NCBI GenBank assembly: GCA_017463145.1
Contig: JAFTPR010000002.1
Location: 17,334-81,333 of the forward strand
DNA: 64,000 bases
DNA from: Clostridia bacterium
GTDB taxonomy: Bacteria; Bacillota; Clostridia; Christensenellales; Borkfalkiaceae
Direction of reading: 5' to 3'
The notes below the pieces were generated by a model. That model was not told the DNA's origin, did not search any database, and saw nothing but the letters and a program-made list of their open reading frames with translations. Position numbers and translations under genes: made by a program. Positions 47,882 to 64,000 of this stretch are shown piece by piece (the stretch's first letter is position 1; the number at the start of each line of letters is the position of its first letter).

Positions 47882-47912
47882 ATTCGACAAAAATAACGTA
47901 AAAATTATGCAA

Positions 47913-47942: not shown

Positions 47943-47977
47943 ATATAATAGAGCAAAGCCATGCAAGGAGAACTGTT

Positions 47978-48850: not shown

Positions 48851-48862
48851 TAGAAATTTGCC

Positions 48863-49801: not shown

Positions 49802-49900
49802 TATACTTGTATCGTACGGAAACCCCGCAGGCACGACGCGCGATTACGCCGCGTCGATTTTTTTGCGGTGAGAAAAAATAACGGGAGTTTTACAAGCCGA

Positions 49901-51406
49901 ATGAAGAAGGAATGGTATTTCGACAGATATTGCGGACAGCAGTTCGCCGCCCTCGTGGAGGACGGTAAGCTTGCCGAATTTCTCATAGAAAGAGAACCGC
50001 GCGTCGAAACCGTCGGAAACGTTTATAAGGGCAAGGTGACAAACGTACTCTCGGGAATGAACGCGGCGTTCATTTCCTGTGGGTTGCATAAAAATTGTTA
50101 CCTTTCTATGGAGGAAACGTACACCGACTATACGAAATACGACGGTACGTTTGTGGAAACGAACGTACAGCCTTTGGATTTGAAAGTAGGCGACGAAATC
50201 ATTGTGCAAGTGACAAAACCTCCGCGCGGTACGAAAGGCGCAAAAGTCACTACGCATCTTTCGTTTGTGGGTAAAAATCTTATCTATTTGCCCCAAACGG
50301 ATTTTTTGGGTATTTCCCGTAAGATTACGGACGAAAAAACGCGGGAGAACTTGCTGAAAACGGCGGAAAAAATGCGCGTGCACGGCAAGGAAGGGTTTAT
50401 TGTCCGTACGCAAGCGCCGTTTGCAACGGTCAAGCAACTGAAATCGGAAGCGGAATATCTCAAAAAGTTATACAACGAGATGTTGAAAAAAGCGCAAGAT
50501 GCACCAATCGGCACGGCTCTTTACGAGGACGACGAATTGCCCGTACGTATTATGCGGGATATTTTCGGTGATGACCTCGTAGCGATACACGTGGGCGACG
50601 AGGAGCTGTATCAAAAGCTGAAAAAGCTGATAAAATTGCGCGCGGATATCCCTGAACGCAAGCTCATCAAATACACGGGTAGCCGCTCTATGATGACGGA
50701 GTATGGCATCACCCCGCTTGTATACGACTCGGCAAGACCGACTGTGGCCTTGGAAAACGGAGCGTATCTCGTATTCGACCACACGGAGGCAATGACCGTT
50801 GTAGACGTGAATACGGGCAGTTATACGGGCGAAACAAGTTTGGAGGAAACGGTGTTTGCCGTTAATCTTGCGGCGGCGCGGGAAATTGCGCGGCAGGTGC
50901 GGCTTCGCAATATCGGCGGTATCGTCACGGTAGACTTTATCGATATGACGGAGGAAGCGCACAAAGAAGCTGTCACCGAGGAGCTGAAAAAGTGCCTTGC
51001 GCCCGACAAAGCCAAATGTAACGTGTTGCCTATGAATGAGTTTTGTTTGACGCAATTTACGCGAAAACGCGTGGGCAAGGAAATGCAAGCCATTCTTGTT
51101 AAGCCCTGTCCGCATTGCTTGGGCAGAGGGTTCGTCCACGACGATATTTTCGTGATATCGCGGTTGCGTTCGGAAATTCTCGATTGTTTTGCAGACGGAT
51201 ATACGACGGCAATTATCGAGCTGAACGATTGGATTATGCGGAAAATTTTGCACGAGGGGCTGTTCTCCAAGGAAGCGCAAGGACGTTGGAAGGACAAGCG
51301 GGTATACTTTGTGCCGCATAAGACGTACAAAGAAGAATTTTTTACGGTGCGCGGCGATACGGCGCAGGTCGTAAAGTTGCCCGACAAGGCGCAGATACTG
51401 TATTGA
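49901..51406 (+). CDS. rng: Ribonuclease G/E-family endoribonuclease
   Basis: S1 domain VGNVYKGKVTNVLSGMNAAFI and VVDVNTGSY motif. Track ORF begins at a GTG at 49868. Confidence 0.8.
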   Translation: MKKEWYFDRYCGQQFAALVEDGKLAEFLIEREPRVETVGNVYKGKVTNVLSGMNAAFISCGLHKNCYLSMEETYTDYTKYDGTFVETNVQPLDLKVGDEIIVQVTKPPRGTKGAKVTTHLSFVGKNLIYLPQTDFLGISRKITDEKTRENLLKTAEKMRVHGKEGFIVRTQAPFATVKQLKSEAEYLKKLYNEMLKKAQDAPIGTALYEDDELPVRIMRDIFGDDLVAIHVGDEELYQKLKKLIKLRADIPERKLIKYTGSRSMMTEYGITPLVYDSARPTVALENGAYLVFDHTEAMTVVDVNTGSYTGETSLEETVFAVNLAAAREIARQVRLRNIGGIVTVDFIDMTEEAHKEAVTEELKKCLAPDKAKCNVLPMNEFCLTQFTRKRVGKEMQAILVKPCPHCLGRGFVHDDIFVISRLRSEILDCFADGYTTAIIELNDWIMRKILHEGLFSKEAQGRWKDKRVYFVPHKTYKEEFFTVRGDTAQVVKLPDKAQILY

Positions 51407-51417
51407 CGGCGAAAAGA

Positions 51418-51456
51418 AACGCCCGAAAGCAATTGCTTTCGGGCGTTTGATTTTTG
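51418..51456. terminator. Bidirectional intrinsic terminator
   Basis: AAACGCCCGAAAGC / GCTTTCGGGCGTTT hairpin between convergent rng and fba. Confidence 0.75.
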
Positions 51457-51461
51457 GTTGA

Positions 51462-52400
51462 TTAGAATGCTTTGCCAGCCGAACCGAGCACGTTGACGAT
51501 CTTGTGTTTTACCATTTCTTTCATCATTGCGCGCGCGTCGCCGAGGTATTGGCGAGGGTCGAAGTGACCGGGTTGTTCGGTAAAGTGCTTGCGGATAGCC
51601 GCCGTGAACGCTACGCGAAGGTCGGAGTCGATATTGATTTTACAAACCGCCATTTGCGCTGCTTTTCTAAGCTCCGATTCGGGAATACCGATTGCGTCGG
51701 GCATATGTCCGCCGAATTGGTTGACGATTGCAACCTTGTCCTGCGGAACGGACGAAGCACCGTGCAAAACAATCGGGAAGCCGGGCAATCTCTTGCCGAT
51801 TTCTTCCAAAATATCCAAACGGAGTTTAGGGTCTTGACCGGGCTTGAACTTGTATGCGCCGTGGCTTGTGCCGATAGCGATTGCAAGGGAGTCGATACCC
51901 GTTTTTTGTGTGAACTCTTCCACTTCGTCAGGGGAGGTGAATTGCGCGTCTGCCGCAGCGACGTTTACGTCGTCCTCAATACCTGCAAGTTTACCAAGCT
52001 CCGCTTCCACAACCACGCCGTGGTCGTGTGCATATTCAACAACTTTTTTCGTGATTTCAATGTTTTCTTCCCAAGGATGCGAAGATGCGTCGATCATAAC
52101 GGACGTGAAACCGCCGTCGATAGAAGCTTTGCAAATCTCGAAATCTGCGCCGTGGTCAAGGTGCATTGCGATAGGAATATCCGTCGTTTCGACAGCCGCT
52201 TCCACGAGCTTTTTCAAATATACGGGGTTAGCGTACTTTCTCGCGCCTGCGGATACCTGCAAGATAACGGGAGATTTTTCCTCGTTTGCCGCTTCGACGA
52301 TCGCTTGGATCATTTCCATATTGTTGACGTTGAAAGCACCGATTGCGTATTTGCCTGCATAGGCTCTTTTAAACATCTCGGTAGTAGTTACCAAAGGCAT
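51462..52400 (-). CDS. fba: Class II fructose-1,6-bisphosphate aldolase
   Basis: Motifs YAIGAFNVNN, HLDHG and LHGASS. Confidence 0.9.
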   Translation of the reverse strand: MPLVTTTEMFKRAYAGKYAIGAFNVNNMEMIQAIVEAANEEKSPVILQVSAGARKYANPVYLKKLVEAAVETTDIPIAMHLDHGADFEICKASIDGGFTSVMIDASSHPWEENIEITKKVVEYAHDHGVVVEAELGKLAGIEDDVNVAAADAQFTSPDEVEEFTQKTGIDSLAIAIGTSHGAYKFKPGQDPKLRLDILEEIGKRLPGFPIVLHGASSVPQDKVAIVNQFGGHMPDAIGIPESELRKAAQMAVCKINIDSDLRVAFTAAIRKHFTEQPGHFDPRQYLGDARAMMKEMVKHKIVNVLGSAGKAF

Positions 52401-52479
52401 AAATGATGTCCTCCAAAATTTTTATACGCCTATATTATAGCGTATTTTTTTTCAAAAAGCAAATAAAATAGGGGCGTTT

Positions 52480-53283
52480 TCAGTATTTGCGAATATTTTG
52501 CGCAATATGCTCCGTCATAACCGTCGCCATATCGATATCGGAAACGGCGTACAACATTCTTGCGCCCGCCGCGTCCTCTAACTCGTTTACAATCCAGCCG
52601 TTTTTATCAGGTAAAAAATCGATACCGATAAAGTCGAAACGCAATGCCTTGTATATCTTTTCCACAATCGATTTTTGCGTTTCGTCCGCTTCCGCAAGCC
52701 GTACGCGCCCGCCGAGGGAGAAGTTGCTCCGAAAATCTTTGTCCGACTCCCGTAAAACGCTTGCGACGATTTTTCCGCCGACGGCGTATATCCGCATATC
52801 CTTGCCCAAATTGCCGCACGGGCGTTGCAATAAAAAATCGTCTTGAAGCGTTTGCCGTACTTGTTGCAAATCGTGCTCGTTTTCTACCCAAAATACCTCG
52901 CTGCCACCGTGTCCAAAGCGGGATTTAGCAACGAACGGAAAGGGCAAAGTTCCCTCGCCAAAGCGGTACGTTTGCAAAACGGGGATACCGTGTACGCGTT
53001 GAAATTCGTACGTATGCCACTTATCGCAAGCAGTTGCCGCCGTTTGCGCATTGTTGAATACCCGTACGCCCCGTTCTTGCAGCCATTCGTTGAGCGTAGG
53101 GCAAATGAAGCGCACCACGGCAAATTCGGGCAAATTGCTTGGAAGCGTTTTGGCAAAATCCCCTTTTTCCACGATCCGTAGTGTAAGAGAAATACCCCGC
53201 TTTGCCGCCTCTTCTTGCAAGCGGTTTATAAACCACTCGTTTTTCTTTGCGCCCAGCCTATCGTAACAAAGCCAACCGTTCAT
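52480..53283 (-). CDS. RimK-like ATP-grasp ligase (paralog 2)
   Basis: ATP-grasp layout (FVAKSRFGHGGSEVF..DMRIYAVGGK..RSNFSLGG..IGIDF..VNELEDAAG). Confidence 0.65.
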   Translation of the reverse strand: MNGWLCYDRLGAKKNEWFINRLQEEAAKRGISLTLRIVEKGDFAKTLPSNLPEFAVVRFICPTLNEWLQERGVRVFNNAQTAATACDKWHTYEFQRVHGIPVLQTYRFGEGTLPFPFVAKSRFGHGGSEVFWVENEHDLQQVRQTLQDDFLLQRPCGNLGKDMRIYAVGGKIVASVLRESDKDFRSNFSLGGRVRLAEADETQKSIVEKIYKALRFDFIGIDFLPDKNGWIVNELEDAAGARMLYAVSDIDMATVMTEHIAQNIRKY

Positions 53284-54137
53284 AAGCGCTCCAAAATATG
53301 CTCGAATATGTATTTACTCAAATCTACGCCCGTACAATCGAGCGTGCTTTTAAAGTGCGGGTTGGAATTGATTTCGCAAACGAGCGGCGTTTTCCCAAGG
53401 AGTAAATCTACGCCCGCAAAGTCTGCGCCCACCGCCTTGCAAGCGGCAAGTGCAACGGCTTCTTGCTCCTCGCTTAAAGCGTACAAAAAAGCCGTTCCTC
53501 CGTTGGAGATATTCGAGCGGAAATCCCGCTCGTTATGGCGAAGCATAGAGGCGACCGCTTTGCCTCCCACAACGTTTACACGCACGTCCTTGCCCATGCT
53601 TTCTTGAATAAATTCCTGCATTAAAAATTCCTTGGGGGAGATACGGCTAATGACGTTTACCGCTTCCGCGCGGGTGTGCACAAGATACACCTGTTGTCCG
53701 AACGAGCCGTAATTTTCCTTAATGACGAACGGATAAGATAAAAGTTCTTCCGCCCTTTCGAGGAAGGTTAAATCGTTATATCCCACCGTATCGAACGTTT
53801 TGGGCGCAAGCACCGTCTTTGGCGTAGGTACGCCCGCGTTGGAAAACGCAAGCGCCGTCTTTGCTTTATCGTCGCAAATCCCAACGGTTTTCGCGCTGTT
53901 AAAAAGAGGAATTCCTTGCGCTTCAAGCGCTTCTGCAAGCCGTATGTCCTTATCCCAAAAAATAACAAATTCCGGCGGGGCAGGTATGCGTTCACCGACA
54001 ATACCCACCAGCTCGTCTGCGCGCTTTAAAAGGAGCGAAACGTTCCGTTTTTTCGCTTCGGAAAGAAGAAGAGAATACAGCGTTGCGTATTTCTCTCCCT
54101 GTAAAAAACCGTTTACGACAAGCCACCCGTTTTTCAT
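53280..54137 (-). CDS. RimK-like ATP-grasp ligase (paralog 1)
   Basis: ATP-grasp layout (FVIKENYGSFGQQVY..DVRVNVVGGK..RSNISNGG..AGVDLL..CEINSNP). Overlaps its paralog by 4 nt. Confidence 0.65.
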   Translation of the reverse strand: MKNGWLVVNGFLQGEKYATLYSLLLSEAKKRNVSLLLKRADELVGIVGERIPAPPEFVIFWDKDIRLAEALEAQGIPLFNSAKTVGICDDKAKTALAFSNAGVPTPKTVLAPKTFDTVGYNDLTFLERAEELLSYPFVIKENYGSFGQQVYLVHTRAEAVNVISRISPKEFLMQEFIQESMGKDVRVNVVGGKAVASMLRHNERDFRSNISNGGTAFLYALSEEQEAVALAACKAVGADFAGVDLLLGKTPLVCEINSNPHFKSTLDCTGVDLSKYIFEHILERL

Positions 54138-54182
54138 AAGTCTACTCCTTGGGTACTATCATACCACTTTTTTTGAAAAAAA

Positions 54183-55355
54183 TCAACGTTTTTGCGCCCG
54201 TAAAGCGACTTCCGCAAATAACGCCGCTCCGATTGGAAGCGCATTTTCGTCGAAGTCCGTTTTCGGGTGGTGGAGCGGGTAGGCGTAACCGCCCGCGTTG
54301 CTCCCCGCCGAAAGCGCGAGCATAACGGAGGGTGTTTCCTGTGAAACATATGCAAAATCTTCGCTGCCTCCGCCCCGCTGTCCCTCTGCGGAAACGACCT
54401 GCTTTTCGCCAAGCAAGTCCTTTGTAACGGCTAAGGCAAGCGCGCGTAGTTTTTCGTCGTTGACGAGGGTGGGGCAACCGCTTGTAAAAGTTGTTTCCGC
54501 CTTGGCTTTGTAGGCGTTTGCCGTGTGCTTGACAATTTCCTTTATGCGGTTTTTGATATACGCGCGTGTTTTTTCGTCGTATGCGCGAAGCGAGCCGCAG
54601 AGGTTCGCCTTGTCGGCAATGGCATTCGCCGCAACGCCCGAAAGGAATTTACCGAGCGTGAGTACGGCGGGGTCGGAAACGGATATCTCGCGCGCGGGGA
54701 TTGCTTGCAATGCAAGGGCGATATGCGCGCCCGCAAGCAGCGCATCCACGCCTTCGCGCGGGGTCGAACCGTGGCAGCTTTTTCCTTTTACCGTAATCTC
54801 AAAGAAATCGGCGCAAGGAGCAATTTCGCCTACGCCTGCCAAAACGACCGTTCCCGTTTTTAGCGGCGTAGCCGTTGCAACGTGCAAAGTAAACGCGCCC
54901 GTCACGTTGGATAAAACGCCTGCTTTTATGGCGAGCGTCGCGCCTTCAAGTGTTTCCTCTCCGAATTGAAAAAGAAAGCGTACTTCCCCCTTCAAGTCTT
55001 TTTCTCGCTGTTTCAACAGTTTTGCCGCGCCAAGGAGCATTGCCGTATGCATATCGTGTCCGCAGGCGTGCATATTGCCCGTTTTGCAAGCAAAAGGCAA
55101 GCCTGTTTTTTCCTTGATCGGGAGCGCGTCCGCGTCTGCGCGGAGCAAAAACGCTTTGCCCGTTTTCGTAGGATTTAGGCTTGCCACAACGCCGCCTCTA
55201 TGCGGCTTCGGCGTGTAACCGAGTTTTTGTAAAGTTTCCGTGATATATGCTTGGGTCTTGGGTAAAACAAGCCCCGTTTCTGCATTCTTGTGTAAATACC
55301 GACGATGCGAAACGAGTTCGCTTTGTATCGCTTGCGCTTCCTGTAAAACGTTCAT
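54183..55355 (-). CDS. M20D-family amidohydrolase (N-acyl-amino-acid/hippurate hydrolase-like)
   Basis: Start MNVLQEAQAIQSEL at 55355. Motifs LRADADALP, MHACGHDMH and FQFGEE. The longer track ORF (to 55910) overlaps the MFS gene and is rejected. Confidence 0.75.
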   Translation of the reverse strand: MNVLQEAQAIQSELVSHRRYLHKNAETGLVLPKTQAYITETLQKLGYTPKPHRGGVVASLNPTKTGKAFLLRADADALPIKEKTGLPFACKTGNMHACGHDMHTAMLLGAAKLLKQREKDLKGEVRFLFQFGEETLEGATLAIKAGVLSNVTGAFTLHVATATPLKTGTVVLAGVGEIAPCADFFEITVKGKSCHGSTPREGVDALLAGAHIALALQAIPAREISVSDPAVLTLGKFLSGVAANAIADKANLCGSLRAYDEKTRAYIKNRIKEIVKHTANAYKAKAETTFTSGCPTLVNDEKLRALALAVTKDLLGEKQVVSAEGQRGGGSEDFAYVSQETPSVMLALSAGSNAGGYAYPLHHPKTDFDENALPIGAALFAEVALRAQKR

Positions 55356-55393
55356 ATATACAGCTTGTAGCAAACGACGGGAAGGTATACGTC

Positions 55394-56647
55394 TTAGTCT
55401 TTTTTCAGAAGTTTCGGGGTTCTTTTCTTGCCTTTCCAAAGGAGGTAATAGATCCAAATCCCAATCAAGGGAAAGAGGGTTGCAACTAGCATACCTGCTT
55501 TCATTCCGATTTGTTCGGGAGAGAGTGCAAGGCTTGTAGAAAGGTTTGCGGCAAACGTACTTGCGGCTACCGTGTCCGTGATCACGCCGATAAGCTGCGG
55601 TCCGACGGATGCGCCGAGGTCGCCTCCTGCTGCCATCATTGCGTAGATAAATACGCCGCCGTCCGGTATGCGATCCGTTGAGGCGATTAACGTTCCTGGC
55701 CAAAGCATAGAAACGCAAAAGCCCGTCGCGGCGCAGGCAATTAAACCGATTACAGGTACGTTTATAAGCGCCGTCGTCAGATAGCAAATGCTTGCGCCGA
55801 TCGCGCCGAAGAAAAGGACTTTTCCCACGTCTTTGCCGTATTTGGCAAACAGCGTTCTGCCCAAGCCCAAAGTTAAGCCGAATAAGGCTACGCCGAAAAT
55901 GTCGCCCCATACTTTTTCAATGCCGAGCGCGCGTTCGAGATAGCCCGAGCTCCATTGCGCCATTGTACATTCGCTTGCACCGCCAAGGAATATGGCGAAC
56001 ACGCAGAGCCACAAGTCTTTTCTTTTAAGAAACGCAAGCGCGCCCGAAACCCGTTCGGGCGTTTCCATTTCGGGTATTTTCGCCCCTGCGAATAAAAGAC
56101 AAGCGGTGAGGGGGACGAGGGCAAAAAACAGGGTCAATATTTGCCATTTATCCGAACCGAAAGCAAGCAAAAATAACGTGCCGCACACCACGACGAACAC
56201 CACGCCCCACGCATAAATGGAATGGAGTTTGCTCATCTCCCGTTCGGGATTTTCCGCGGGAATGGCGGCAATCGTCGGAGAAATCAATACTTCCGAAAGC
56301 CCGCTGGAAGCGGAAAAAACGAATGTACCGAGCGCTAAACCGAGGTATACGAGCTTGGGAAACAGTATAGGCGCAAGAGCGAAAAGCACTAAGCCGAGCA
56401 CGGATAAAACGGGTGTAAATTTTACCGTTTTCGGGATATTGAATTTGTGGGAAAAGAAAGAAAAAATGAGGTCGATTATAAGTTGTGTACAGAAATTGAT
56501 AAGTACCAAAAGACCCAAAAGGGAATAGGAAATGCCGTATAAGGTTCTAAATGTGATAAAGAGCATAGGCGAAAGATTGCCCACAACGGACATAGATACG
56601 TTCGTGGCGTAGCAAGCGTATTTTACGCGTTGGAAAGTCTTATTCAT
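55394..56647 (-). CDS. MFS transporter
   Basis: Start MNKTFQRVKY at 56647. About 12 TM segments. Confidence 0.7.
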   Translation of the reverse strand: MNKTFQRVKYACYATNVSMSVVGNLSPMLFITFRTLYGISYSLLGLLVLINFCTQLIIDLIFSFFSHKFNIPKTVKFTPVLSVLGLVLFALAPILFPKLVYLGLALGTFVFSASSGLSEVLISPTIAAIPAENPEREMSKLHSIYAWGVVFVVVCGTLFLLAFGSDKWQILTLFFALVPLTACLLFAGAKIPEMETPERVSGALAFLKRKDLWLCVFAIFLGGASECTMAQWSSGYLERALGIEKVWGDIFGVALFGLTLGLGRTLFAKYGKDVGKVLFFGAIGASICYLTTALINVPVIGLIACAATGFCVSMLWPGTLIASTDRIPDGGVFIYAMMAAGGDLGASVGPQLIGVITDTVAASTFAANLSTSLALSPEQIGMKAGMLVATLFPLIGIWIYYLLWKGKKRTPKLLKKD

Positions 56648-56865: not shown

Positions 56866-56917
56866 TACAAAAACAAAAAGAAAACGGCATTTATGCAACT
56901 TTTCTTGCATAAATGCC
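56866..56917 (-). terminator. Strong intrinsic terminator (minus strand)
   Basis: Perfect 13-bp hairpin GGCATTTATGCAA / TTGCATAAATGCC. On the minus strand it is followed by GTTTTCTTTTTGTTTTT. Sits 6 nt after the tRNA-like ..CACCA end. Confidence 0.75.
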
Positions 56918-56923
56918 TTACGC

Positions 56924-56946
56924 TGGTGCGGTCGACAGGAATTGAA
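56924..56946 (-). other. tRNA 3'-end fragment (T-loop to CCA); putative att-site remnant
   Basis: The minus strand reads TTCAATT-CCTGT-CGACCGC-A-CCA, i.e. T-loop, 3' T-stem, 3' acceptor strand, discriminator and CCA. No matching 5' half could be folded upstream. Confidence 0.5.
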
Positions 56947-57320
56947 GCAGTTTCCACTTCGCTGAAAGCCTTTATTTATAAGGGATTTAGCCACTTGATC
57001 GCCAAAAACACGCCAATAATTTTAGGCTTTCGTGATAGGGAATTTTTAAGTAATTTTAAGGCATATTTTTGCCCGATTTTTGTGTTGTTTACAATCGACA
57101 GGTCAAGTTTTTTCGTTTATGTTAAATTTGTTATTCACCTCTCAAAAGTTGCCAAAAGTACGCCAAAACGTGAATCAAAAATTCGACGATCTTTCATATA
57201 AAAATTCTCATTGAAAAAAGGTTTAATTTACAACAAATTTCAGTCGACAGGTCATTTGCGCGTTTTTGACTTGTTCGCTTTTTTGATTTGATATGATAAG
57301 CAAAAATCATATCTTTTGAT

Positions 57321-57470
57321 TTTACAGGGACATTTGCAGGAACATTGTGACCTATTTACACCGACAAATACACCGTCATTTACTCCGACATACACCCGAC
57401 ATTTACACCCTCATTTTATAATTTACAGACTCGTTTAGAGGCACATTTACAGAGTCATTTTATGCTACAG
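57321..57470. repeat. Array of degenerate ~11-12-nt phased repeats (consensus approx. CGACATTTACAC)
   Basis: ATTTAC cores at 57355, 57378, 57401, 57421 and 57445, with intervening half-copies (ACAAATACACC, ACATACACCC, TCATTTTAT). Non-coding. Confidence 0.6.
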
Positions 57471-57554
57471 CATAATTTTGATAACTTATTTTTAGCGGTG
57501 TCATGCAATAAATTGTTTTGCCAATCCAAGGAAAAAAGCTATGAACTATCATAA

Positions 57555-57580
57555 AAGAAGAGACGGATTAGCCTCTTCTT
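57555..57580 (-). terminator. Possible terminator of the radical-SAM operon
   Basis: AAGAAGAG / CTCTTCTT hairpin. The T-tract on the minus strand is weak (TTTATGAT). Confidence 0.4.
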
Positions 57581-57635
57581 TCATAGCTGAACATATTATT
57601 TGTTTTTTATTTACCTTATCGAAAATTAATGGGTG

Positions 57636-59534
57636 TTAATTTTTGTCAACAGTGGCTTCGTTTCTTGTTATTTTATAATACCTTAATACTTCCTCGATTT
57701 CAGTATCACCATTTGTAGTATATTCGCCGTCTCTAAATTTGTTCTTTGCAATGATTTTTTTTGCTTCTTCCAATTTCTTTTCGGGTAATGCTTGGAATTT
57801 GCCCCACCATTCATTGGCTAAATCGCAATCATCTGTAGAATGGCTTTTATATCTGTCAGCAAGTCTCGCCCTTAAATTGGCATCATATTTTCGGCGATAA
57901 ATAATGAACGTTTCAGGCATCCAAAGAATTTTCATAAATTCATCAACATCACGTCCAAAAGCTTCTTCAAAAAATTCTGTACCTTTTCCGATTTTTCCTT
58001 TAGTGGAATTTAATACAGCTTGAACTGCACGTATAAATTTACGATTCCAATGTTTACCTATAAAATCTCTATTTTTGAAGAACTCAGGATCGTTGATAGG
58101 GTGATACTTCATAGGGAATGAGTAGATACTCGCGCCTAATTCATCGCACAAATCGACATTCATACGCAATCTATAATATAAGTGTTCAGGTTTGTCCTCA
58201 AAATTGTATAATAAATAATTTGAAAGATTTGTTATACCATTCCTAACTGCAATGCGGATAGAGTTTTCATAAATCTTTCTTAACTCCCAATGGTCGAATG
58301 CAATTCTAAGCGGGCGAATATTGATTTCCGATAATTTTCTCATATTTTCATCGGTAATCAACCGCGAATCTATACCCTGATTAAAATCAACTATACGCAT
58401 TTTTCGTCCAGCCTTATACGTTTTTTTGTATAATGGACGTACAAATTCATCAAGCTCTAAAATCGCCTCGCGTGTTGCCGTATAGTAATGTAAACAATGT
58501 TTTTCTTCCAAATGGGCATAGAATTGTATCTGTTCTTCTTCTGACAATTTAGAGCGTAGCTGTGTATAAATTTTGACAGCCTTTCTAACATACGCCCTTA
58601 CATTATAAGAGTCTCTTAAATTCTGAATAACAACATCATATTCATCGGGAGCAGAATAAGTCGCCCCTTTGGCAAAGCCACACGCTTTAATTTCATCTAT
58701 AATTTGCGCATAGCAACTTGAGGCTAATACATTATTATCCATAAGCATTAAATTACGTTGCTCGCCAAAACGTGTCTTCGCTATTTCCAACTGTTTTTTT
58801 AAACCAATATAATCGCAATATTGGGGTTCCAATTTTGGAACAGCACAAAATCTACATTTGTTTACACACCCACGCGTCATATACGCAAAATAAGCATTAT
58901 TAGTGGGATAAACATAATCGATTTCTTCTAAAATGGAATAATCTAAGGGCAACTCATCGATGATTAAATCATTGTCCTTATCAATATCCCCAGGATGATT
59001 TAATAGTCCTAAAAAGGGGTGAATGCCTGTTGCTTCGTAAACTTCATTAGGTAATAAAGTGGACATAATGCCGCCCACCATGACATCATCAATAGATTTA
59101 CACAACTGCTTCGCAAAGTTAATTGTTTCTATTGTGATATTCCAATAAAAGGTAAATAACGTCGTGATTCCTACTTTGTCAAAACGCGGCTTAGTAAAAT
59201 ACTCTTTTGCTACGTATTTTGCACGATATTCTTTGATTGCTTCAAAAATATATTCAGATTGAAAAACTTCGTCTTCCAAAATGGAAAATCTACCCACTTT
59301 TATAAATTCAAATAAGGTAGGGTAATATTCTTTCCAAAATATATTTGGCTCAATAATACTGAGATGATTTATTAAATCTTCGCAAATTAAATCAACCGCC
59401 AAAGATTTCATATCACCCTTATAGAAACGTACATCATCACCCACCATACGATAATATGTGGCAAGTTTCATTAAACCCATCGGGGGATATTTATTTTTAT
59501 AATTCGGCTCGATGAGCAATACTTTTCTATTCAT
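57636..59534 (-). CDS. Radical SAM enzyme with N-terminal B12-binding-like (Rossmann) domain
   Basis: CxxxCxxC at residues 223-230 (RGCVNKCRFCAVP; nt ~58845-58868). N-terminus KVLLIEPNYKNKYPPMGLMKLATYYRMVGDDVRFY resembles the B12-binding/radical-SAM class. 632 aa. Confidence 0.8.
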   Translation of the reverse strand: MNRKVLLIEPNYKNKYPPMGLMKLATYYRMVGDDVRFYKGDMKSLAVDLICEDLINHLSIIEPNIFWKEYYPTLFEFIKVGRFSILEDEVFQSEYIFEAIKEYRAKYVAKEYFTKPRFDKVGITTLFTFYWNITIETINFAKQLCKSIDDVMVGGIMSTLLPNEVYEATGIHPFLGLLNHPGDIDKDNDLIIDELPLDYSILEEIDYVYPTNNAYFAYMTRGCVNKCRFCAVPKLEPQYCDYIGLKKQLEIAKTRFGEQRNLMLMDNNVLASSCYAQIIDEIKACGFAKGATYSAPDEYDVVIQNLRDSYNVRAYVRKAVKIYTQLRSKLSEEEQIQFYAHLEEKHCLHYYTATREAILELDEFVRPLYKKTYKAGRKMRIVDFNQGIDSRLITDENMRKLSEINIRPLRIAFDHWELRKIYENSIRIAVRNGITNLSNYLLYNFEDKPEHLYYRLRMNVDLCDELGASIYSFPMKYHPINDPEFFKNRDFIGKHWNRKFIRAVQAVLNSTKGKIGKGTEFFEEAFGRDVDEFMKILWMPETFIIYRRKYDANLRARLADRYKSHSTDDCDLANEWWGKFQALPEKKLEEAKKIIAKNKFRDGEYTTNGDTEIEEVLRYYKITRNEATVDKN

Positions 59535-59538
59535 ACAA

Positions 59539-61098
59539 CTATTTTAAATCCTTTGTGATTTTATCTATAATTTGTTCGGCTATTTCTTTAGGTGCAATAT
59601 CACTAATAATAGTCATGATTTTTGAAACCAACTTTCTTTCAGCTTTTGTTAATTTTGAAAAACTTGCAGCCAAATACGAGTCTTTATTCTTTGTAGGAGT
59701 AGAGACGACTTCCACCTTGGTTGTTTGTTCTTCTACCTCATCAGCATTATATTGACGCTTAATACTTTTTTGAACCTCAGCTATTGGCGAATCTTCATCC
59801 ACCGTCTCGTATTTATCTAATTGCTTTTTTGCTTTTTCAGCCTTTTTACGCGATTCTTCAACGTCATGTTGCATCTTGGCGCGTTCCTCTTCACTAATGA
59901 ACCCACCAGTTTTTGATTTTGCATTAAAATCTTCTACTTTATCAACATATTCTTTTTGCGCCTTAATAGCATTTTTTATTCCGTTTGCAGAATAATAAAT
60001 TTTATATAAGGTTTCATGAAAATATCTTTTTAGAAGCGTTTCAAACTTCACGCGACATTCATTTTCGTTAAAATAGTCTCTTTGCGAGTTTGGAATCAAT
60101 CCCTCATCAACAGCAAAGACTTCGCCAACAAAATAATAATTACTGCGAGCTTCACGGAAAAGGTTTCGTTTTTGTAAAGTATCATCGTCTCCCAATTGAA
60201 TATTAGCACTTCTTAATCGAATGCCTCTCATCTCATTGATTTTGGGTATTTGCTTTTCAAACCGAGAAAGTCCAACCCACATCCAAGCAATCAGTTTGCC
60301 GTTTTCATCTTTAAAATTGTGAAACTCCAACTTGGAAATCTCATCATAATTTTTGATGTTAGAACCGCTTTCTTCTTTTAATTTAGTGGTATAATTTTTG
60401 AAAAGTTGTTCCCCGTTGACCAAGATTTTATATTCGTCAATAACATATCCGATTTTTTTGGCATGCTCGTAAATTTGATAATTTAAATAGAATTTATTGG
60501 TGTATGGAACAGGCGCAACAAAACTTAAATAGTCAACGACTTTGGTTTGGTCTAACAAATCAGAATGCGCTTGTCCTACATCAATTAGTTCTACATCAAA
60601 ATAATGTTTTTCTGCTTGTTCGGGTTTAGTGTCAAATTTAACAATTTCCGCCCATATCTCATCAATAGTGTATTTGATGGGAGAGGTAAGCATTTCACGC
60701 ATTTTTTTTGCGTCACAAGTCATTATAGAGGCAACATTTTCGCCTAAATAGGATGTCGTAAATTTTAAAACTTGACAATAGGCTAAGCCGCATAATCGTC
60801 CTATTCCTCGAAAGCCTTTGTTTTCGCCTCTCTTTTTATTACTGTTTGCAATATCGCCTAAATCACTTTGGAAATCTGCGGCTTTCACACCAGTAGCATT
60901 ATCATGAATGTTAATATAACGCTTTTTCGGGTCTATGTAAATTTCAACTTCGCCCTCGTCAGGGTTCAAGATTCCTTCTTTAATTGCTTTATCAATTTGG
61001 TCGCAAGCGTTTTGGATGTATTCACGATAACTCACTTTAGAGTCTAAATACATACCAGTTGTCAAGTTTTCTAAAATATTTTTTCCTATTGTAGCCAT
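59539..61098 (-). CDS. GHKL (Bergerat-fold; MORC/Hsp90-like, HATPase_c_3-type) ATPase with charged coiled-coil C-terminus
   Basis: N-box REYIQNACDQ (ExxxNAxD). G1-like IHDNATGV. G2-like GFRGIGRLCGL. K/E-rich helical tail. Confidence 0.7.
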   Translation of the reverse strand: MATIGKNILENLTTGMYLDSKVSYREYIQNACDQIDKAIKEGILNPDEGEVEIYIDPKKRYINIHDNATGVKAADFQSDLGDIANSNKKRGENKGFRGIGRLCGLAYCQVLKFTTSYLGENVASIMTCDAKKMREMLTSPIKYTIDEIWAEIVKFDTKPEQAEKHYFDVELIDVGQAHSDLLDQTKVVDYLSFVAPVPYTNKFYLNYQIYEHAKKIGYVIDEYKILVNGEQLFKNYTTKLKEESGSNIKNYDEISKLEFHNFKDENGKLIAWMWVGLSRFEKQIPKINEMRGIRLRSANIQLGDDDTLQKRNLFREARSNYYFVGEVFAVDEGLIPNSQRDYFNENECRVKFETLLKRYFHETLYKIYYSANGIKNAIKAQKEYVDKVEDFNAKSKTGGFISEEERAKMQHDVEESRKKAEKAKKQLDKYETVDEDSPIAEVQKSIKRQYNADEVEEQTTKVEVVSTPTKNKDSYLAASFSKLTKAERKLVSKIMTIISDIAPKEIAEQIIDKITKDLK

Positions 61099-61110
61099 AA
61101 TGGGGAATCC

Positions 61111-62814
61111 TTACTTAAATTGTTTATAAATAGGTTTCGGGAATTTAATACTCAATAACGAGCGGAATATAGGATTTTGAATAATGTATTCACCTTGATT
61201 CAAGCGCGTCATCATAGTTTTATAGACGTCTGGAATACTACGATAATCACTTTTCGTAATTTCAATAGAATTCGTTCGCCCATAAGCGTGAGTGGAACAG
61301 TTTCCTGTTACTCTATCGTGAATAGCACTTCTAAATTGTTCCGCCGCAAAGAGAACAACACCAAGAGAACGTCCACGTTCCGCCACATCTAAAACTTGCC
61401 GTAAAATCGGAGAATTCTTAGGTGCATCCTTTGAAGCATACTTGTTTAATTCATCAATAAAAATTACAATACGTGAGGGGGGATTAACATTGGCTTCCCC
61501 GTTATATTGTCCTAATTGCAAATCGTAAATTGTTCGTATAGCGTCACCGAATACGAATGCTTGTTTATCTTCAGATAACTTGGCAATATCAATCACATGA
61601 ACTTCATTCTTCTTAATATGCTTTAATGATTCTTCCAATCGGGTCTCGTTATCCTCAGGACAAACACGGTTTGCAAAAATTCTATTATCCGCGATGCTTT
61701 TATTGATAATACGATAAAACTTTCTCCAACTTGTAACAGCAATTTCTTTATCCGAAGAAGCTTTATCAGGGCTGCATTTTTTCTTAACGCACTCTAAAAA
61801 CTCCTGCCAAGTGGAAATTGTCCCAAAATCACCTTGTCCCGACATAATATATGTGATAATTGAGTCCATGGTTTGCGTGGAATCATCCACATTTGCAAAC
61901 ATCAAATCAAGATTTTCTTTGTCGTCCTCATAAATATATTTATACATTTTGCCCTTTTTCGTTTCCAGTTTCTCTTTGACTTCTTCTGGCGACAAATATG
62001 TATTCCAATGAGCAGTTCTTTCAATGGAGTATGGATAATAATACTGCACATTTTTAAAAGGTTCAGGGGTTAATCCAAGTGCTTCATATTGCTTAAATAA
62101 TGTTTCCTGTGCTTTTTCGGGGTTTTTGCTATCCGAGAACTCATTTAACTCATCAATAGCCAAAAGGTCTTTCCCTTTTACATTAAACAATACGAACGCA
62201 ACACTATCATCTTCATCCTCGTTGGTTAAATAACGGTCTTGAATTGCTTTTAACAAAAACATAGAGTAGGATGTTTTTGCTGCAAGACCTGATATACCAG
62301 AAATATTCAAATGTGCACCTTCGGGTCCAATAATGAATTTGGAATTTAACGATACAGGCAATGTTACTTTTTTATGTCCTTCCGTTCCTTCATACATTTC
62401 AAGATAACCACATACAAGAGGATTTTGAATACCATTTAACCCTAACGCATACTCTATCTCATCTGCAGTTGCCAACATAACCTTTGCATTGCTCTGTAAA
62501 GGAATATAAATATTTTTATCATTGCATGCCACTTTTGCAGTAACATAATTCATGCCAACGCGTAAAGTATTTGCTTCCACACCGACATCGCCAAAATCAC
62601 TGGATATGAAATTTGTTAAAAAGCTTGCCGCATCAGTGATATGCGCAATATCTTCTATTACGCCATAAGAATGGGAGCCATTAACGTGTTCTATCTTCAC
62701 CACATCAAAGGGATTTAAAATTAAATTAGATTTCGTCCAAAATGTAAACTTATCGATTGTAGTAGGGCATTTTTCTGTCGCTAAAACTCTACCAATTACT
62801 TTATTATCAGACAT
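61111..62814 (-). CDS. HerA/DUF87-like (FtsK-HerA superfamily) ATPase
   Basis: N-terminal barrel-like VIGRVLATE..FDVVKIEH..YGVIEDI. P-loop-like GPEGAHLNISGISGLAAKTS. Walker B RIVIFIDELNKYA. RGRSLGVVLFAAEQ segment. Confidence 0.6.
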   Translation of the reverse strand: MSDNKVIGRVLATEKCPTTIDKFTFWTKSNLILNPFDVVKIEHVNGSHSYGVIEDIAHITDAASFLTNFISSDFGDVGVEANTLRVGMNYVTAKVACNDKNIYIPLQSNAKVMLATADEIEYALGLNGIQNPLVCGYLEMYEGTEGHKKVTLPVSLNSKFIIGPEGAHLNISGISGLAAKTSYSMFLLKAIQDRYLTNEDEDDSVAFVLFNVKGKDLLAIDELNEFSDSKNPEKAQETLFKQYEALGLTPEPFKNVQYYYPYSIERTAHWNTYLSPEEVKEKLETKKGKMYKYIYEDDKENLDLMFANVDDSTQTMDSIITYIMSGQGDFGTISTWQEFLECVKKKCSPDKASSDKEIAVTSWRKFYRIINKSIADNRIFANRVCPEDNETRLEESLKHIKKNEVHVIDIAKLSEDKQAFVFGDAIRTIYDLQLGQYNGEANVNPPSRIVIFIDELNKYASKDAPKNSPILRQVLDVAERGRSLGVVLFAAEQFRSAIHDRVTGNCSTHAYGRTNSIEITKSDYRSIPDVYKTMMTRLNQGEYIIQNPIFRSLLSIKFPKPIYKQFK

Positions 62815-62825
62815 GTTTTTCCTCC

Positions 62826-63974
62826 TTAAAATAAGTGCAAAAACGTATTTGTGTTTATGTAGTTACTCTTTACAAAAGTTTCGGTTAAATATACGGGATA
62901 CAAATGATTTGCCCAACGCTTATCTGTACCATAACAGGTAGGATTTCGTTCATTAAGGATATTAGCGGAAATTAAATCAACCTCATCGCTTTCTATCCCA
63001 TATTTCATTTCTCTATCCATTAAAATTTTTTCAACTTTTACTACACCATCAAAAGGCGTATGGGTTTGCCGTTTGTCCCTTAGTCTGATATACCAAACCG
63101 CAAATTCCACATCACCAGAATAACTGTTTCTATAACGCGCAACAGGGGTACGATGATGTAAGGGGAGTTCAGCAATATAATTTGCATTAGGTTTGCCTGT
63201 ATGGTCTTTTATCGTTTCTGGGTTAAAGGATTTTGAAACGCCTATAACCCAACGATAATTGTTCTTTATTCTTTGTAGAGAACGTGGGTCTTCTCTCCCT
63301 GTTTGCATATACTCTAAAGAACCATCTTTCAATAGATAGCTGTATTGCCCCAACTTTTTATCTCTGACCAATTGTTCAACCATTTTCTTTTCACAATCAA
63401 TCATATAATCTTGGACTTTTGCAATTGCTAAATCTTCAAGTTTAACTCGGTCGGTTGCATTTTTTGATGTTTTGTATGTTAAAATCTCGGAGAATTCCAA
63501 CTGCAACCTTTGGAGTTCTTCACTCTGGTTTATTTTTTGGAGTTTTGACTTGAAATAGCCTTTATCCCACCCCTCAGGGTCGCTTTTATCAGGGAGAACC
63601 AAAACCAAGTCTCTATAAAAAAGCTCTTTCGACATAATTTTATCAACGCGTTTACAGCAACCAACTCCAACTTGCCCTGCAATAATCGGGAACACTTGAT
63701 TTCCATATGCCATATCATCGACTTTGTATACATGCCGTGATCCATCTAAAAAATACTTAAGGAGCGGTGTTTGTTCACTAATACGATCTGCTTCTTCTTT
63801 CAGAGGAATATATGTTTTATATTCAATAGTTTCACCTTGGTTTTTCCACTGTATGATTTTTTCATCGTTATCATAATCGATAGAAGGGATTCCAATGGAA
63901 TCAAAACTATACTTATAAGTTTGATAACTTTTCCCTTTGGTTTCCTTCGCTATGATTTCCATGATTTTAGGCAT
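62826..63974 (-). CDS. NurA-like nuclease
   Basis: FLDGS at residues 75-79, acidic helix (CEKKMVEQL) about 20 aa before LKDGSL at 215-220. This matches the D...E...D arrangement of NurA. RBS GGAGGA upstream at 63980-63990. Confidence 0.5.
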   Translation of the reverse strand: MPKIMEIIAKETKGKSYQTYKYSFDSIGIPSIDYDNDEKIIQWKNQGETIEYKTYIPLKEEADRISEQTPLLKYFLDGSRHVYKVDDMAYGNQVFPIIAGQVGVGCCKRVDKIMSKELFYRDLVLVLPDKSDPEGWDKGYFKSKLQKINQSEELQRLQLEFSEILTYKTSKNATDRVKLEDLAIAKVQDYMIDCEKKMVEQLVRDKKLGQYSYLLKDGSLEYMQTGREDPRSLQRIKNNYRWVIGVSKSFNPETIKDHTGKPNANYIAELPLHHRTPVARYRNSYSGDVEFAVWYIRLRDKRQTHTPFDGVVKVEKILMDREMKYGIESDEVDLISANILNERNPTCYGTDKRWANHLYPVYLTETFVKSNYINTNTFLHLF

Positions 63975-64000
63975 ATAGGTTCCTCCTTTTGAAATATCGT

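Follow-up and report, generated by a model that had tools for sequence, protein, structure and literature searches.

The Deinococcus NurA-HerA complex pairs a hexameric, ATP-driven dsDNA translocase with a NurA dimer that caps it, and it threads onto, unwinds and degrades DNA ends (PMC9960219). The D. radiodurans genes (DR_0836/DR_0837; structures 7F6D, 7WRW and 7WRX) are adjacent and in nuclease-then-ATPase order, as are genes 1 and 2 of a four-gene cassette in the window, the 64,000-nt stretch of a Clostridia bacterium contig analysed here. D. radiodurans HerA and gene 2 share the P-loop NISGISGxAxKTSYA, the Walker B motif DELNKYA and the arginine of ERGRSLG. By contrast, the window pair is joined to genes for a GHKL ATPase and a radical SAM (rSAM) protein, is island-borne and patchily distributed by horizontal transfer, and lies amid defence rather than repair genes. 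SIR2-HerA and DUF4297-HerA (Gao_Her/Nezha) likewise place a HerA-family hexameric motor beside an effector, either NADase or nuclease, in mobile loci directed against invaders. However, the effector in the window is NurA, with neither SIR2 nor DUF4297 present, and gene 2 matches anti-phage HerA marginally (8XAU, E=1e-3; 8ZIQ, 7e-3; PADLOC HerA, 1e-4; NCBIfam HerA_antiphage, 13 bits where the cutoff is 800). The best PADLOC match of gene 2 is mad8 of the methylation-associated defence system MADS (E=5e-9), in the C-terminal ATPase half; this match covers residues 374-548 only, and none of the remaining seven genes of MADS, among them the methyltransferase, is present at the window locus. In HerA/FtsK capture systems a translocase intercepts invading DNA; their description (Rakesh, Aravind and Krishnan 2024, PMC10853773) mentions neither NurA, nor GHKL, nor the rSAM family of gene 4.

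The Dnd, Ssp and Dpd systems contain, as is proposed for this cassette, an ATPase-assisted DNA-modifying module and a nuclease/translocase module, and a further link is the DndB-family gene that precedes the rSAM-GHKL pair in alphaproteobacterial relatives. Unlike these systems, the window contains no DndA/C/D/E, SspA-D, DpdA (TGT) or DndB-like gene, and the putative modifying enzyme is an rSAM protein. In 2008 Iyer, Abhiman and Aravind are said to have assigned prokaryotic GHKL ATPases of the MORC/paraMORC and MutL-like kinds to restriction-modification settings. MORC/paraMORC and Gao Mza likewise feature a stand-alone GHKL protein with a coiled coil in a mobile, nuclease-containing operon; partnership with rSAM and NurA-HerA is not known from their descriptions, and no PADLOC model, Mza included, matched gene 3. 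Gene 4 resembles class B rSAM enzymes (TsrM, Mmp10, TokK) and the cobalamin-free AprD4 in having a Rossmann/B12-like N-domain followed by a partial TIM barrel with a CxxxCxxC motif. It is nevertheless very remote from them (TM 0.3-0.4, 8-12% sequence identity), bears two large insertions, both helical and specific to its clade, as well as a C-terminal domain that is also helical, and occurs among DNA-acting proteins rather than in natural-product or cofactor pathways.

The four genes and their products

The cassette consists of four ORFs on the minus strand, separated by 11, 12 and 4 nt in order from gene 1 to gene 4. A prior sequence-only reading had delimited the same co-directional ORFs, with 4-12 nt spacing, and its coordinates are exact; the motifs that it quoted by eye are all present, each being invariant among 32-36 diverse homologs, and its four domain calls (NurA, HerA, GHKL, and radical SAM with a B12-like N-domain) hold at family level in profile tests. 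Taken singly, three of the four window proteins have absent or sub-threshold Pfam matches. The suggestion that the operon runs on past nt 64000 failed, as the next upstream gene encodes a DUF234/ATPase_2 protein, which is not kept with the cassette across loci and was ruled out as a system component.

Gene 1 (62826..63974, minus strand, 382 aa) encodes a NurA-like nuclease with invariant acidic motifs FLDGS (D77), E195 and KDGSL (D217). Its assignment is upheld through homologs, 5 of 20 of which (67-84% identity) match Pfam NurA PF09376 (best E=4.5e-7) and some of which carry precomputed PF09376 tags. The top PDB profile match of gene 1, the NurA chain 7F6D_H, is weak (E=1.4), and its AF2 model has a pLDDT of 46; the window protein itself is predicted to be NurA transitively, by way of these homologs.

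Gene 2 (61111..62814, minus strand, 567 aa) encodes a bacterial-type HerA hexameric DNA translocase, with an N-terminal barrel, a deviant P-loop (GISGLAAK180T181S), a Walker B motif (D454-E455) and the arginine of ERGR482S. GISGLAAKTS and FIDELN are invariant among diverse homologs, and the catalytic residues K180/T181, D454/E455 and R482, with roles assigned from the HerA paper (PMC9960219), are conserved. A profile of 32 homologs matches the solved D. radiodurans HerA (7F6D_B, 7WRW, 7WRX) with E=9.6e-49, spanning both halves of the protein and sharing the P-loop. On profile similarity the nearest kin of gene 2 is the DNA-repair HerA, not anti-phage HerA.

Gene 3 (59539..61098, minus strand, 519 aa) encodes a GHKL (Bergerat-fold) ATPase. 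Its Hsp90/MORC-like N-domain leads into a conserved middle domain (IPNSQRDYFNEN); beyond this come a coiled coil, which varies, and a small C-terminal module, which is conserved. Pfam HATPase_c_3 is matched above its gathering cutoff (34.3 bits against 25), and the gene 3 profile matches HtpG/Hsp90 N-domains (E=1e-11), a likeness confined to the ATP-binding N-domain (residues 6-89). E26, N30, D66, G70 and G98 are invariant in the family, as are REYIQN, DNATG and GFRGIGR among the homologs, and the protein is predicted to be a catalytically intact ATPase of the Hsp90/MORC type.

Gene 4 (57636..59534, minus strand, 632 aa) encodes a divergent radical SAM enzyme, in which an N-terminal Rossmann/B12-binding-like domain accompanies the invariant cluster motif C223-x3-C227-x2-C230. 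Pfam matches are sub-threshold for the window protein; across the family, Radical_SAM is matched by 30 of 33 members and B12-binding by 16 of 33. Foldseek searches with the AF2 model (pLDDT 81, pTM 0.75) retrieved TsrM (9.7e-5), AprD4 (8.5e-4) and MiaB (8.9e-4), with TM-scores of 0.30-0.42. The protein is predicted to be an rSAM enzyme whose [4Fe-4S]/SAM motif is intact and whose N-domain is B12-binding-like; cobalamin binding is not inferable, since AprD4 carries this N-domain but no cobalamin. The family is large (283 clusters at 50% identity, E<=1e-30), with a SAP DNA-binding motif fused to one member, and gene 4 has no similarity to viperins. The substrates of the nearest structural matches are an amino acid (TsrM), an aminoglycoside (AprD4) and a tRNA (MiaB).

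Conservation, partner genes and defence context

The four-gene order is kept in 63 of the 66 rSAM-anchored loci from other species that have sufficient flanking DNA. In HerA-anchored metagenome loci, gene 1 lies directly upstream of gene 2 in 65/65, and genes 3 and 4 follow the same arrangement in 52/53. Conservation of order and spacing extends across about 10 phyla plus one archaeon, down to 40-50% identity; the synteny check proposed with the sequence-only reading was strongly positive, and chance adjacency of the four genes is refuted by this recurrence. Relatives are found in at least 569 species genomes, with 71-73% identity between phyla, and the hosts, mostly anaerobic, include Bacillota, Planctomycetota, Bacteroidota, Synergistota, Chloroflexota, Verrucomicrobiota, Elusimicrobiota and Cloacimonadota, together with one archaeal Methanomethylovorans. 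Between unrelated contexts, 97% nucleotide identity extends from 2 nt before the gene 1 ATG to 25 nt before the gene 4 stop, and the cassette transfers as a discrete, self-contained and horizontally mobile four-gene unit. It is essentially absent from phage genomes.

The earlier emphasis on HerA and a nuclease as the core has to be revised, the invariant evolutionary core being the rSAM-GHKL pair. In 12 alphaproteobacterial plasmids a DndB-family (DGQHR) gene directly precedes this pair, and PIN_8+GHKL and ParB-N+DEAD-helicase genes lie alongside; the rSAM-adjacent GHKL homologs there match gene 3 with E~1e-55. The pair thus has at least two partner modules that can replace each other, NurA-HerA and DndB-like plus PIN_8-GHKL. 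Intact rSAM genes stand alone at one and the same clpB site in loci L063 and L090, and also in L087, and among the best 80 matches there was no NurA-HerA-GHKL locus without rSAM, save one with a truncated GHKL gene. This asymmetry (three loci, best 80 matches per search) fits that expected of a protective modifier.

Neighbours of the cassette include AbiEi/AbiEii, PDC-S01/S02, PD-Lambda-5, pAgo+SIR2, Shedu SduA, type IV REase and Schlafen/AlbA_2; these come from a raw tally with no genomic background rate, so that enrichment near defence genes is not statistically established. The loci inspected showed no linkage of the cassette to Mre11/Rad50, RecA or any other repair genes, and no precursor-peptide gene or transporter lies within it. 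PADLOC called no system at the locus, and its validated defence protein models gave no match to the four proteins beyond partial HerA-type ones (mad8 and HerA) on gene 2. That no named system joins the four genes, as had been supposed, is borne out by PADLOC, NCBIfam, NCBI annotation and the literature searched. The label of candidate undescribed defence system is a fair one, because the domain calls hold, no named system covers the set, synteny is strong and defence neighbours are frequent.

A proposed function and its alternatives

We consider it somewhat better than an even chance that the locus is an undescribed mobile DNA-targeting defence cassette, in which a HerA-NurA degrading motor is combined with an rSAM-GHKL core that marks or senses DNA. 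Both the defence function and the rSAM chemistry are what we infer from the relatives and surroundings of the genes. The cassette would protect the host, or the host's island, from invading phage or plasmid DNA. The rSAM and GHKL proteins may act in one DNA-acting complex, as their adjacency alone suggests; in it the GHKL protein, a dimerising DNA clamp or scanner gated by ATP, would position the rSAM enzyme. The latter, by 5'-deoxyadenosyl-radical chemistry and possibly cobalamin-dependent methyl transfer, would covalently mark resident DNA, or might provide other means of telling resident from incoming DNA. HerA-NurA would load at free ends or nicks of unmarked DNA and degrade it processively, a logic parallel to the modification-plus-restriction of Dnd, Ssp and Dpd. 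The recurrence of the cassette beside defence genes, with no match to a named system, makes it a strong candidate for a novel form of bacterial immunity.

There is an appreciable, if minor, chance that the cassette is a DNA-targeting defence in which the rSAM enzyme is the initiator or effector instead of a self-marker. GHKL-guided rSAM would damage or alter invader DNA, for instance through strand scission that follows radical H-abstraction or through an attack on the hypermodified bases of a phage, and so make ends or nicks for the ring-shaped HerA-NurA; in an abortive variant all DNA would be degraded once triggered. The drHerA hexamer is closed and stable and threads on at a broken end (PMC9960219), and the cassette encodes no other endonuclease. 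The rSAM-GHKL pair also occurs with further nucleases, PIN_8 among them, which would suit a sensor or initiator, and AbiE-type abortive systems are common nearby. However, the solitary intact rSAM genes are vertically kept without a nuclease, which better fits a harmless, housekeeping-like modifier; DndB-family association is typical of modification modules; and linear phage DNA is injected with ends already, so an initiator is not strictly required. A small chance is left to a DNA repair or maintenance module, carried as fitness or self-maintenance cargo of mobile elements in anaerobes, in which NurA-HerA resects broken ends, as it does in Deinococcus and archaea, the GHKL protein is MutL-like and the rSAM enzyme reverses a lesion like spore photoproduct lyase. 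End resection is an established NurA-HerA function, gene 2 is far nearer D. radiodurans HerA than the anti-phage HerAs, MutL belongs to the GHKL ATPases, and radical SAM enzymes are oxygen-sensitive while the cassette is mostly found in anaerobic gut, rumen and digester taxa. Against such a role stand the patchy cross-phylum distribution at high identity, the alien GC and the discrete transfer between contexts, as well as surroundings of defence and mobile-element genes free of linked repair genes, and the PIN_8 and DndB-like partners that replace NurA-HerA on plasmids.

Smaller again is the probability that the rSAM enzyme acts off DNA, either modifying a protein, peptide or tRNA or producing a viperin-like or signal-like compound (a modified nucleotide or a small molecule), with the GHKL protein as an Hsp90-type chaperone-like partner and NurA-HerA as a separately acting effector. 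Viperins are a radical SAM precedent in immunity, the nearest PDB sequence kin of gene 3 are Hsp90/HtpG chaperones, and tryptophan, an aminoglycoside and tRNA are the substrates of the enzymes structurally nearest to gene 4. Yet gene 4 lacks viperin similarity, the cassette lacks a precursor-peptide gene or transporter, and the Hsp90 likeness of gene 3 lies only in the N-domain common to all GHKL proteins; moreover, the associations of rSAM-GHKL (NurA-HerA, DndB-like, PIN_8, ParB-N plus helicase, SAP fusion) are DNA-acting. That unrelated genes merely lie together on an AT-rich island, forming no system, is an idea to which the poor single-protein Pfam matches lend some colour; with order and spacing identical in 63/66 and 52/53 independent loci, and cassette-only nucleotide homology sharply bounded between differing contexts, its probability is negligible.

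The island boundary and tail

The GC profile confirms that the block is more AT-rich than its flanks (0.33-0.37 over 57000-64000, 0.45-0.53 over 44000-56500), with about 34% GC in the four-gene block and about 50% in the surrounding chromosome. The reported tRNA-fragment junction is real: positions 56924-56946 (minus strand) are identical to the last 23 nt of tRNA-Leu(aag), and this copy bounds the block. ARAGORN found no complete tRNA in the 64-kb window; the tRNA-Leu lies 12.2 kb off on the same contig (L001 3594-3678, where window position = 72815 - L001 position). The 23 nt belong to a 78-nt direct repeat (L001 3656-3733 and 15869-15946; 88% identical, 12,213 bp apart), which is an att-type duplication of an integrated island. 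The window copy (56869..56946, minus strand), at which GC drops from 0.51 to 0.35, comprises the tRNA 3' end and the tRNA's downstream hairpin region, with a terminator-like hairpin at 56917..56886. Remnants of an integrase and of a Mob_Pre relaxase also lie on the tRNA-Leu-integrated island. Between the att copy and the gene 4 stop codon lies an AT-rich non-coding tail (56947..57635), which is part of the island rather than of the cassette, since cassette-only homology stops 25 nt before that stop. This tail has no Rfam family match and no ORF of at least 60 aa save one AT-rich ORF of 102 aa on the plus strand, and contains three CATTTAC motifs on one strand, clustered at 57377-57450.

Gene order, spread and transfer of the cassette

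The AT-rich block at the end of the window contains four minus-strand ORFs, at exactly the coordinates of the sequence-only reading, which are predicted to encode a NurA-like protein (gene 1, 62826..63974, 382 aa), a HerA ATPase (gene 2, 61111..62814, 567 aa), a GHKL ATPase (gene 3, 59539..61098, 519 aa) and a radical SAM (rSAM) enzyme (gene 4, 57636..59534, 632 aa), with intergenic gaps of 11, 12 and 4 nt. In the NCBI ‘Clostridia bacterium’ MAG from which the window derives, the four proteins (MBQ8291061-64) are annotated, respectively, as hypothetical, ATP-binding, ATP-binding and hypothetical. The order of the four genes, read from the window as that of an operon, is conserved in other genomes. 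A scan anchored on the rSAM protein, with one genome per species, found a relative in at least 569 genomes, with carriers in the Bacillota, Planctomycetota, Bacteroidota, Synergistota, Chloroflexota, Verrucomicrobiota, Elusimicrobiota and Cloacimonadota and also a Methanomethylovorans archaeon. Of the 66 retrieved rSAM-anchored loci with enough upstream DNA, 63 have all four genes arranged and oriented as in the window, even where identity falls to 40-50%. A metagenome scan anchored on HerA gave at least 571 relatives, with gene 1 immediately upstream of the HerA gene in 65/65 loci and genes 3 and 4 downstream in 52/53. The single exception (locus L105, 9718-10602) is a truncated cassette, in which the rSAM gene is missing, the GHKL protein is cut to 294 aa and the genes beyond it lie on the opposite strand, indicating a broken cassette rather than a natural three-gene variant.

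Other contigs, on which the gene for this very HerA protein stands in a different context, match the island of the window at 97% nucleotide identity across the cassette only, from 2 nt before the gene 1 ATG to 25 nt before the gene 4 stop. Such sharply bounded homology between different contexts implies that these four genes, and no others, are transferred together. The four genes are a system, co-inherited and co-transferred, and their adjacency by chance, which was allowed next to no probability, is refuted by the synteny. At 90% identity the cassette makes up over 7,000 protein clusters, none of which is annotated, and the rSAM family comprises 283 clusters at 50% identity (E<=1e-30). Anaerobes of gut, rumen and digesters carry the cassette particularly often. 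A complete cassette, whose proteins are 43-60% identical to those of the window, is present in a Methanomethylovorans sp. MAG (L077, 5558-11836); its presence in a methanogenic archaeon indicates inter-domain transfer.

The genes flanking the cassette are heterogeneous across loci, and many are known defence or mobile-element genes. Upstream neighbours include AbiEi/AbiEii pairs (5-6 loci) and PDC-S01 (4 loci), while downstream neighbours include the defence genes PD-Lambda-5, pAgo with SIR2 partners, Shedu SduA, PDC-S01/S02 and a type IV restriction enzyme, as well as integrases, relaxases and TnpV. This neighbourhood, counted without a background rate, is suggestive of defence. Some loci carry facultative additions. 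A ~260-aa protein without a Pfam match and a ~485-aa GHKL paralog (HATPase_c_3) directly follow the rSAM gene in seven loci; the pair lies directly downstream of gene 4 in L014 (11917-14174), L018, L019, L025, L032 and L043, occurs in L039 at 11895-14167, and is inverted in L038. Another add-on, a Schlafen/AlbA_2-HATPase_c_4-wHTH protein, is present in eight loci.

Phage genomes are essentially free of the cassette. A phage origin was considered and rejected, as the phage collection gave only remote partial matches and one fragment of 8.9 kb labelled ‘Bacteriophage sp.’, and BFVD gave nothing significant. The fragment, an unannotated entry from human faeces (GenBank MT836743.1), encodes at 2219-4054 a full-length rSAM homolog with 56% identity, and is perhaps a piece of a mobile element that was misclassified, or else a copy of the cassette carried by a phage.

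The four predicted proteins

Genes 1 and 2 had no match when searched as single proteins against Pfam. By contrast with the single protein, a gene 2 profile built from 32 homologs matched HerA of Deinococcus radiodurans (7F6D_B, E=9.6e-49, query 5-259 and 398-555), with matches to 7F6D, 7WRW and 7WRX that extend over both halves (HAS barrel and RecA-like ATPase) and share the unusual P-loop. The functional residues of the D. radiodurans enzyme, K175/T176, D487/E488 and the trans-acting R513 (PMC9960219), align to K180/T181 (Walker A), D454/E455 (Walker B) and R482 (trans-acting arginine) in gene 2, all of which are invariant in the alignment. The HerA assignment made by eye is confirmed by this full-length match to a solved HerA, with catalytic residues kept. 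PADLOC returned only partial mad8/HerA matches for gene 2.

The NurA assignment of gene 1 stands on the invariant acidic motifs, the adjoining HerA partner, and a Pfam match obtained through homologs and not through the window protein. Among 20 homologs with 67-84% identity, five match Pfam NurA (PF09376, best E=4.5e-7), and all 32 aligned sequences keep D77 (FLDGS), E195 and D217 (KDGSL). A PDB search with the single protein found nothing, while the gene 1 profile placed the NurA chain 7F6D_H on top, weakly (E=1.4). The AF2 model of gene 1, from an alignment of 20 sequences with 67-100% identity, has a mean pLDDT of 46, too low for use. When a diverse profile was used to look for more distant homologs, the clade of 71-78% identity came up again. 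Judged by their sequences, genes 1 and 2 belong to the bacterial NurA-HerA family, but their surroundings are mobile and not those of repair genes. In D. radiodurans, HerA forms a stable hexamer into which dsDNA is threaded from an end, and a NurA dimer sits atop HerA, where the strands are split and cutting is coupled to translocation (PMC9960219).

Gene 3 is the sole window protein above a curated Pfam cutoff (HATPase_c_3, 34.3 bits vs cutoff 25), and this score, together with its N-box, G1 and G2 boxes, upholds the GHKL call. The Bergerat-fold residues E26, N30, D66, G70 and G98 are invariant, and the gene 3 profile matches HtpG/Hsp90 N-domains (E=1e-11). Beyond the GHKL domain, the alignment contains a middle domain that is conserved, a coiled coil that varies and a short conserved module at the C-terminus. 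Of the features of the MORC/paraMORC subfamily, namely an S5-fold transducer domain behind the GHKL domain and clade-specific motifs, the alignment offers no more than this middle domain and the coiled coil as counterparts.

Gene 4 had been read as a radical SAM enzyme with a B12-binding-like N-domain. The cluster motif C223-x3-C227-x2-C230 is invariant. The B12-binding model (PF02310) is matched, under the gathering score, by 16/33 family members (best E=3.9e-5). Radical_SAM (PF04055) is matched by 30/33 family members (best E=1.6e-6), and both domains are sub-threshold in the window protein. PDB searches by sequence gave nothing for the single protein, and no solved relative for the profile. 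The AF2 model (pLDDT 81, pTM 0.75) was used in a Foldseek search, in which only TsrM, AprD4 and MiaB were significant (probability 1.0, TM-scores 0.30-0.42), each with a Rossmann-like N-domain ahead of an rSAM barrel. Gene 4 is a true radical SAM enzyme, though a strongly diverged one. As AprD4 carries this N-domain but no cobalamin, the domain is no guide to cobalamin use by gene 4. Several rSAM relatives of ~800 aa have long C-terminal extensions, in which no extra Pfam domains were found. The one domain fusion found is in a divergent 391-aa member (P0420), which has an N-terminal SAP motif (PF02037, 24.8 bits vs cutoff 23.9). The SAP motif is a DNA-binding module. By sequence, the cassette comprises a Deinococcus-type NurA-HerA pair, a GHKL ATPase and a radical SAM enzyme, all with intact catalytic residues.

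Relation to named systems and proposed role

In its logic the cassette resembles the defence systems with a HerA motor and the Dnd/Ssp/Dpd modification-restriction systems, but it is a member of none. SIR2-HerA and DUF4297-HerA have a SIR2 or DUF4297 effector, neither of which was found in the cassette by Pfam or PADLOC, and the NCBIfam model HerA_antiphage scored 13.4 bits on gene 2 against a cutoff of 800, placing gene 2 outside the SIR2-HerA/DUF4297-HerA clade. MADS is an eight-gene set that includes a DNA methyltransferase, which the cassette lacks; membership was rejected, since the partial mad8 match concerned gene 2 alone and no other MADS model matched. DndACDE, SspABCD and DpdA/QueC-type genes are absent from the four proteins (PADLOC, Pfam, NCBIfam), and DndB-family genes adjoin the system in distant loci of Alphaproteobacteria only. 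Prokaryotic viperins (pVip) have ~300-350 aa, whereas gene 4 has 632 aa and a B12-like N-domain, with no PADLOC match. The fold of gene 4 resembles that of the class B radical SAM enzyme TsrM, yet also that of the cobalamin-free AprD4. NCBIfam gave nothing above cutoffs for the four proteins, and a full-text literature search found no description of HerA or NurA with radical SAM and GHKL, nor of a defence module combining rSAM with a DndB-like protein. A 2024 paper on ‘HerA/FtsK capture systems’ makes no mention of NurA, GHKL or the gene 4 rSAM family (PMC10853773). As far as PADLOC 2023, NCBIfam 2026, Pfam 2025 and the searched open-access papers reach, the cassette appears undescribed. The proposal of an undescribed defence system is supported, as a candidate, by the profile tests, the synteny and the lack of a named match.

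A second arrangement was found by tblastn against plasmids. Twelve alphaproteobacterial plasmids, for example Rhizobium pR132505 (L009), Novosphingobium pNL1 (L010) and Roseomonas p2-AD3 (L011), encode an rSAM homolog (~37% identity), with a DndB-family (DGQHR) gene directly before it and a homolog of the gene 3 GHKL protein (E~1e-55) directly after. Beside these are a PIN_8 protein and a second GHKL paralog, which the add-on GHKL paralog of the cassette loci echoes, and a cluster of ParB-N, a DEAD/DEAH helicase and small ORFs. NurA and HerA are absent from these plasmid loci, indicating that rSAM and GHKL are the constant part and that the nuclease and partner modules are exchangeable. The plasmid version looks like a sister system, likewise unnamed, and the exchange of NurA-HerA for PIN_8 and DndB-like proteins offers a natural experiment on the coupling of sensing to effector. 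Intact rSAM homologs also occur on their own, with 51-53% identity to gene 4 and without NurA, HerA or GHKL (L063, 10001-11806; L090, 9950-11803; L087, 3033-4955). In two Synergistales genera the solitary gene is at the same position downstream of clpB, implying that the stand-alone rSAM is kept by vertical descent.

On balance, the cassette is probably a mobile DNA-targeting defence system, and in kind we lean towards a multi-gene, motor-plus-nuclease system directed against invaders. The rSAM and GHKL proteins would form a DNA-directed complex, in which the GHKL protein would act as an ATP-gated clamp that delivers the rSAM enzyme. This complex would mark or discriminate DNA, and DNA failing the test would be degraded by HerA-NurA. 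The rSAM enzyme, possibly cobalamin-dependent, might go further and place a new covalent modification as a self-label, with unlabelled DNA destroyed by swappable modules, namely NurA-HerA, or PIN_8-GHKL and a DndB-like protein on the proteobacterial plasmids. A DNA-marking role is suggested by the DndB-family partner, by the SAP fusion and by an asymmetry in gene loss, as the solitary rSAM persists, while no NurA-HerA-GHKL locus without an rSAM gene was found among the loci retrieved, bar L105 with its truncated GHKL. We propose only tentatively that the rSAM installs such a covalent self-mark; radical-SAM-based DNA marking is a credible minority reading, and would be categorically new.

The same enzyme could be a DNA-damaging initiator, or the system could be abortive, an unlikely reading that would keep DNA as the target of the rSAM without the self-label to which the gene-loss asymmetry points. 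Slightly less likely is a DNA-repair module, which would accord with NurA-HerA as a resection machine; the mobile, non-repair context of genes 1 and 2 and the defence-rich neighbourhood point the other way. Least likely of these is an rSAM that acts on a non-DNA substrate, the DndB-family partner and the SAP fusion both suggesting DNA. If the defence reading holds, a widespread module, with relatives in at least 569 species genomes, would be added to the defence repertoire, an archaeal/Deinococcus-type NurA-HerA resection machine would have been recruited for immunity, and a first biological role would fall to a large radical SAM family, so far an orphan, and to the GHKL protein that is its obligate partner. 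Frequent carriers are gut, rumen and digester anaerobes, whose phage-host biology is poorly charted. If the rSAM modifies DNA, the result would be new nucleic-acid chemistry, a possible epigenetic tool or marker, and a mark that could confound the sequencing of carriers' DNA; the system would be the first radical-SAM-based immunity resembling restriction-modification, in at least 569 prokaryotic species including an archaeon.

The tRNA-Leu island and its boundary

The AT-rich block was correctly recognized, with GC of 0.33-0.37 at 57000-64000 vs 0.45-0.53 across the 12 kb before (0.34 for the block vs 0.50 for the chromosome). ARAGORN found no tRNA in the window. An identical locus on a 91-kb public contig (L001) runs past window nt 64000 and contains tRNA-Leu(aag) at 3594-3678, and the tRNA-fragment junction noted from the window proved correct, as the boundary repeat (att copy) duplicates the 3' end of this tRNA. 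The direct repeat is 78 nt long with 88% identity, and its copies are 12,213 bp apart; the first begins within the tRNA-Leu 3' end, and the second is at window 56869-56946, in which 56924-56946 is the reverse complement of TTCAATTCCTGTCGACCGCACCA. The repeat of the tRNA-Leu 3' end at this distance makes the AT-rich block one end of an island of ~12.2 kb in tRNA-Leu.

Outside the window, the island contains an integrase, a 131-aa ORF, a partial Mob_Pre relaxase and a DUF234/ATPase_2 gene. A tRNA 3'-end repeat, an integrase, a relaxase and deviant GC together characterize it as an integrative mobilizable element. The tyrosine integrase (L001 3975-4757, minus strand, 260 aa) has N-terminal SAM-like and central domains only, with no match for its catalytic domain, and the relaxase (L001 5283-6119, minus strand) covers profile positions 97-148 only. 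Both are apparently truncated, and the element looks decayed and is possibly immobile.

The suggestion that the operon continues past nt 64000 is not borne out, as the next gene upstream is not part of the moving unit. This gene encodes a DUF234/ATPase_2 (AAA_14) ATPase (L001 7352-8740, plus strand, equivalent to ~64075-65463, just past the window end) and has the same orientation as gene 1, 100 nt ahead of it. As a fifth component it was rejected, since it accompanies the cassette only in the near-identical islands L028 and L029, and since the cassette homology begins 2 nt before gene 1; it may be separate cargo of the island.

Rfam gave no match in the non-coding tail beside the att copy, and scans for promoters and terminators did no better than chance, save for a hairpin within the att repeat. 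The tail contains three exact CATTTAC motifs and degenerate copies within 74 bp (window 57377-57450, plus strand), compared with nine CATTTAC in the whole 64-kb window on both strands combined, and this cluster may represent recombinase arm-type or regulatory sites.
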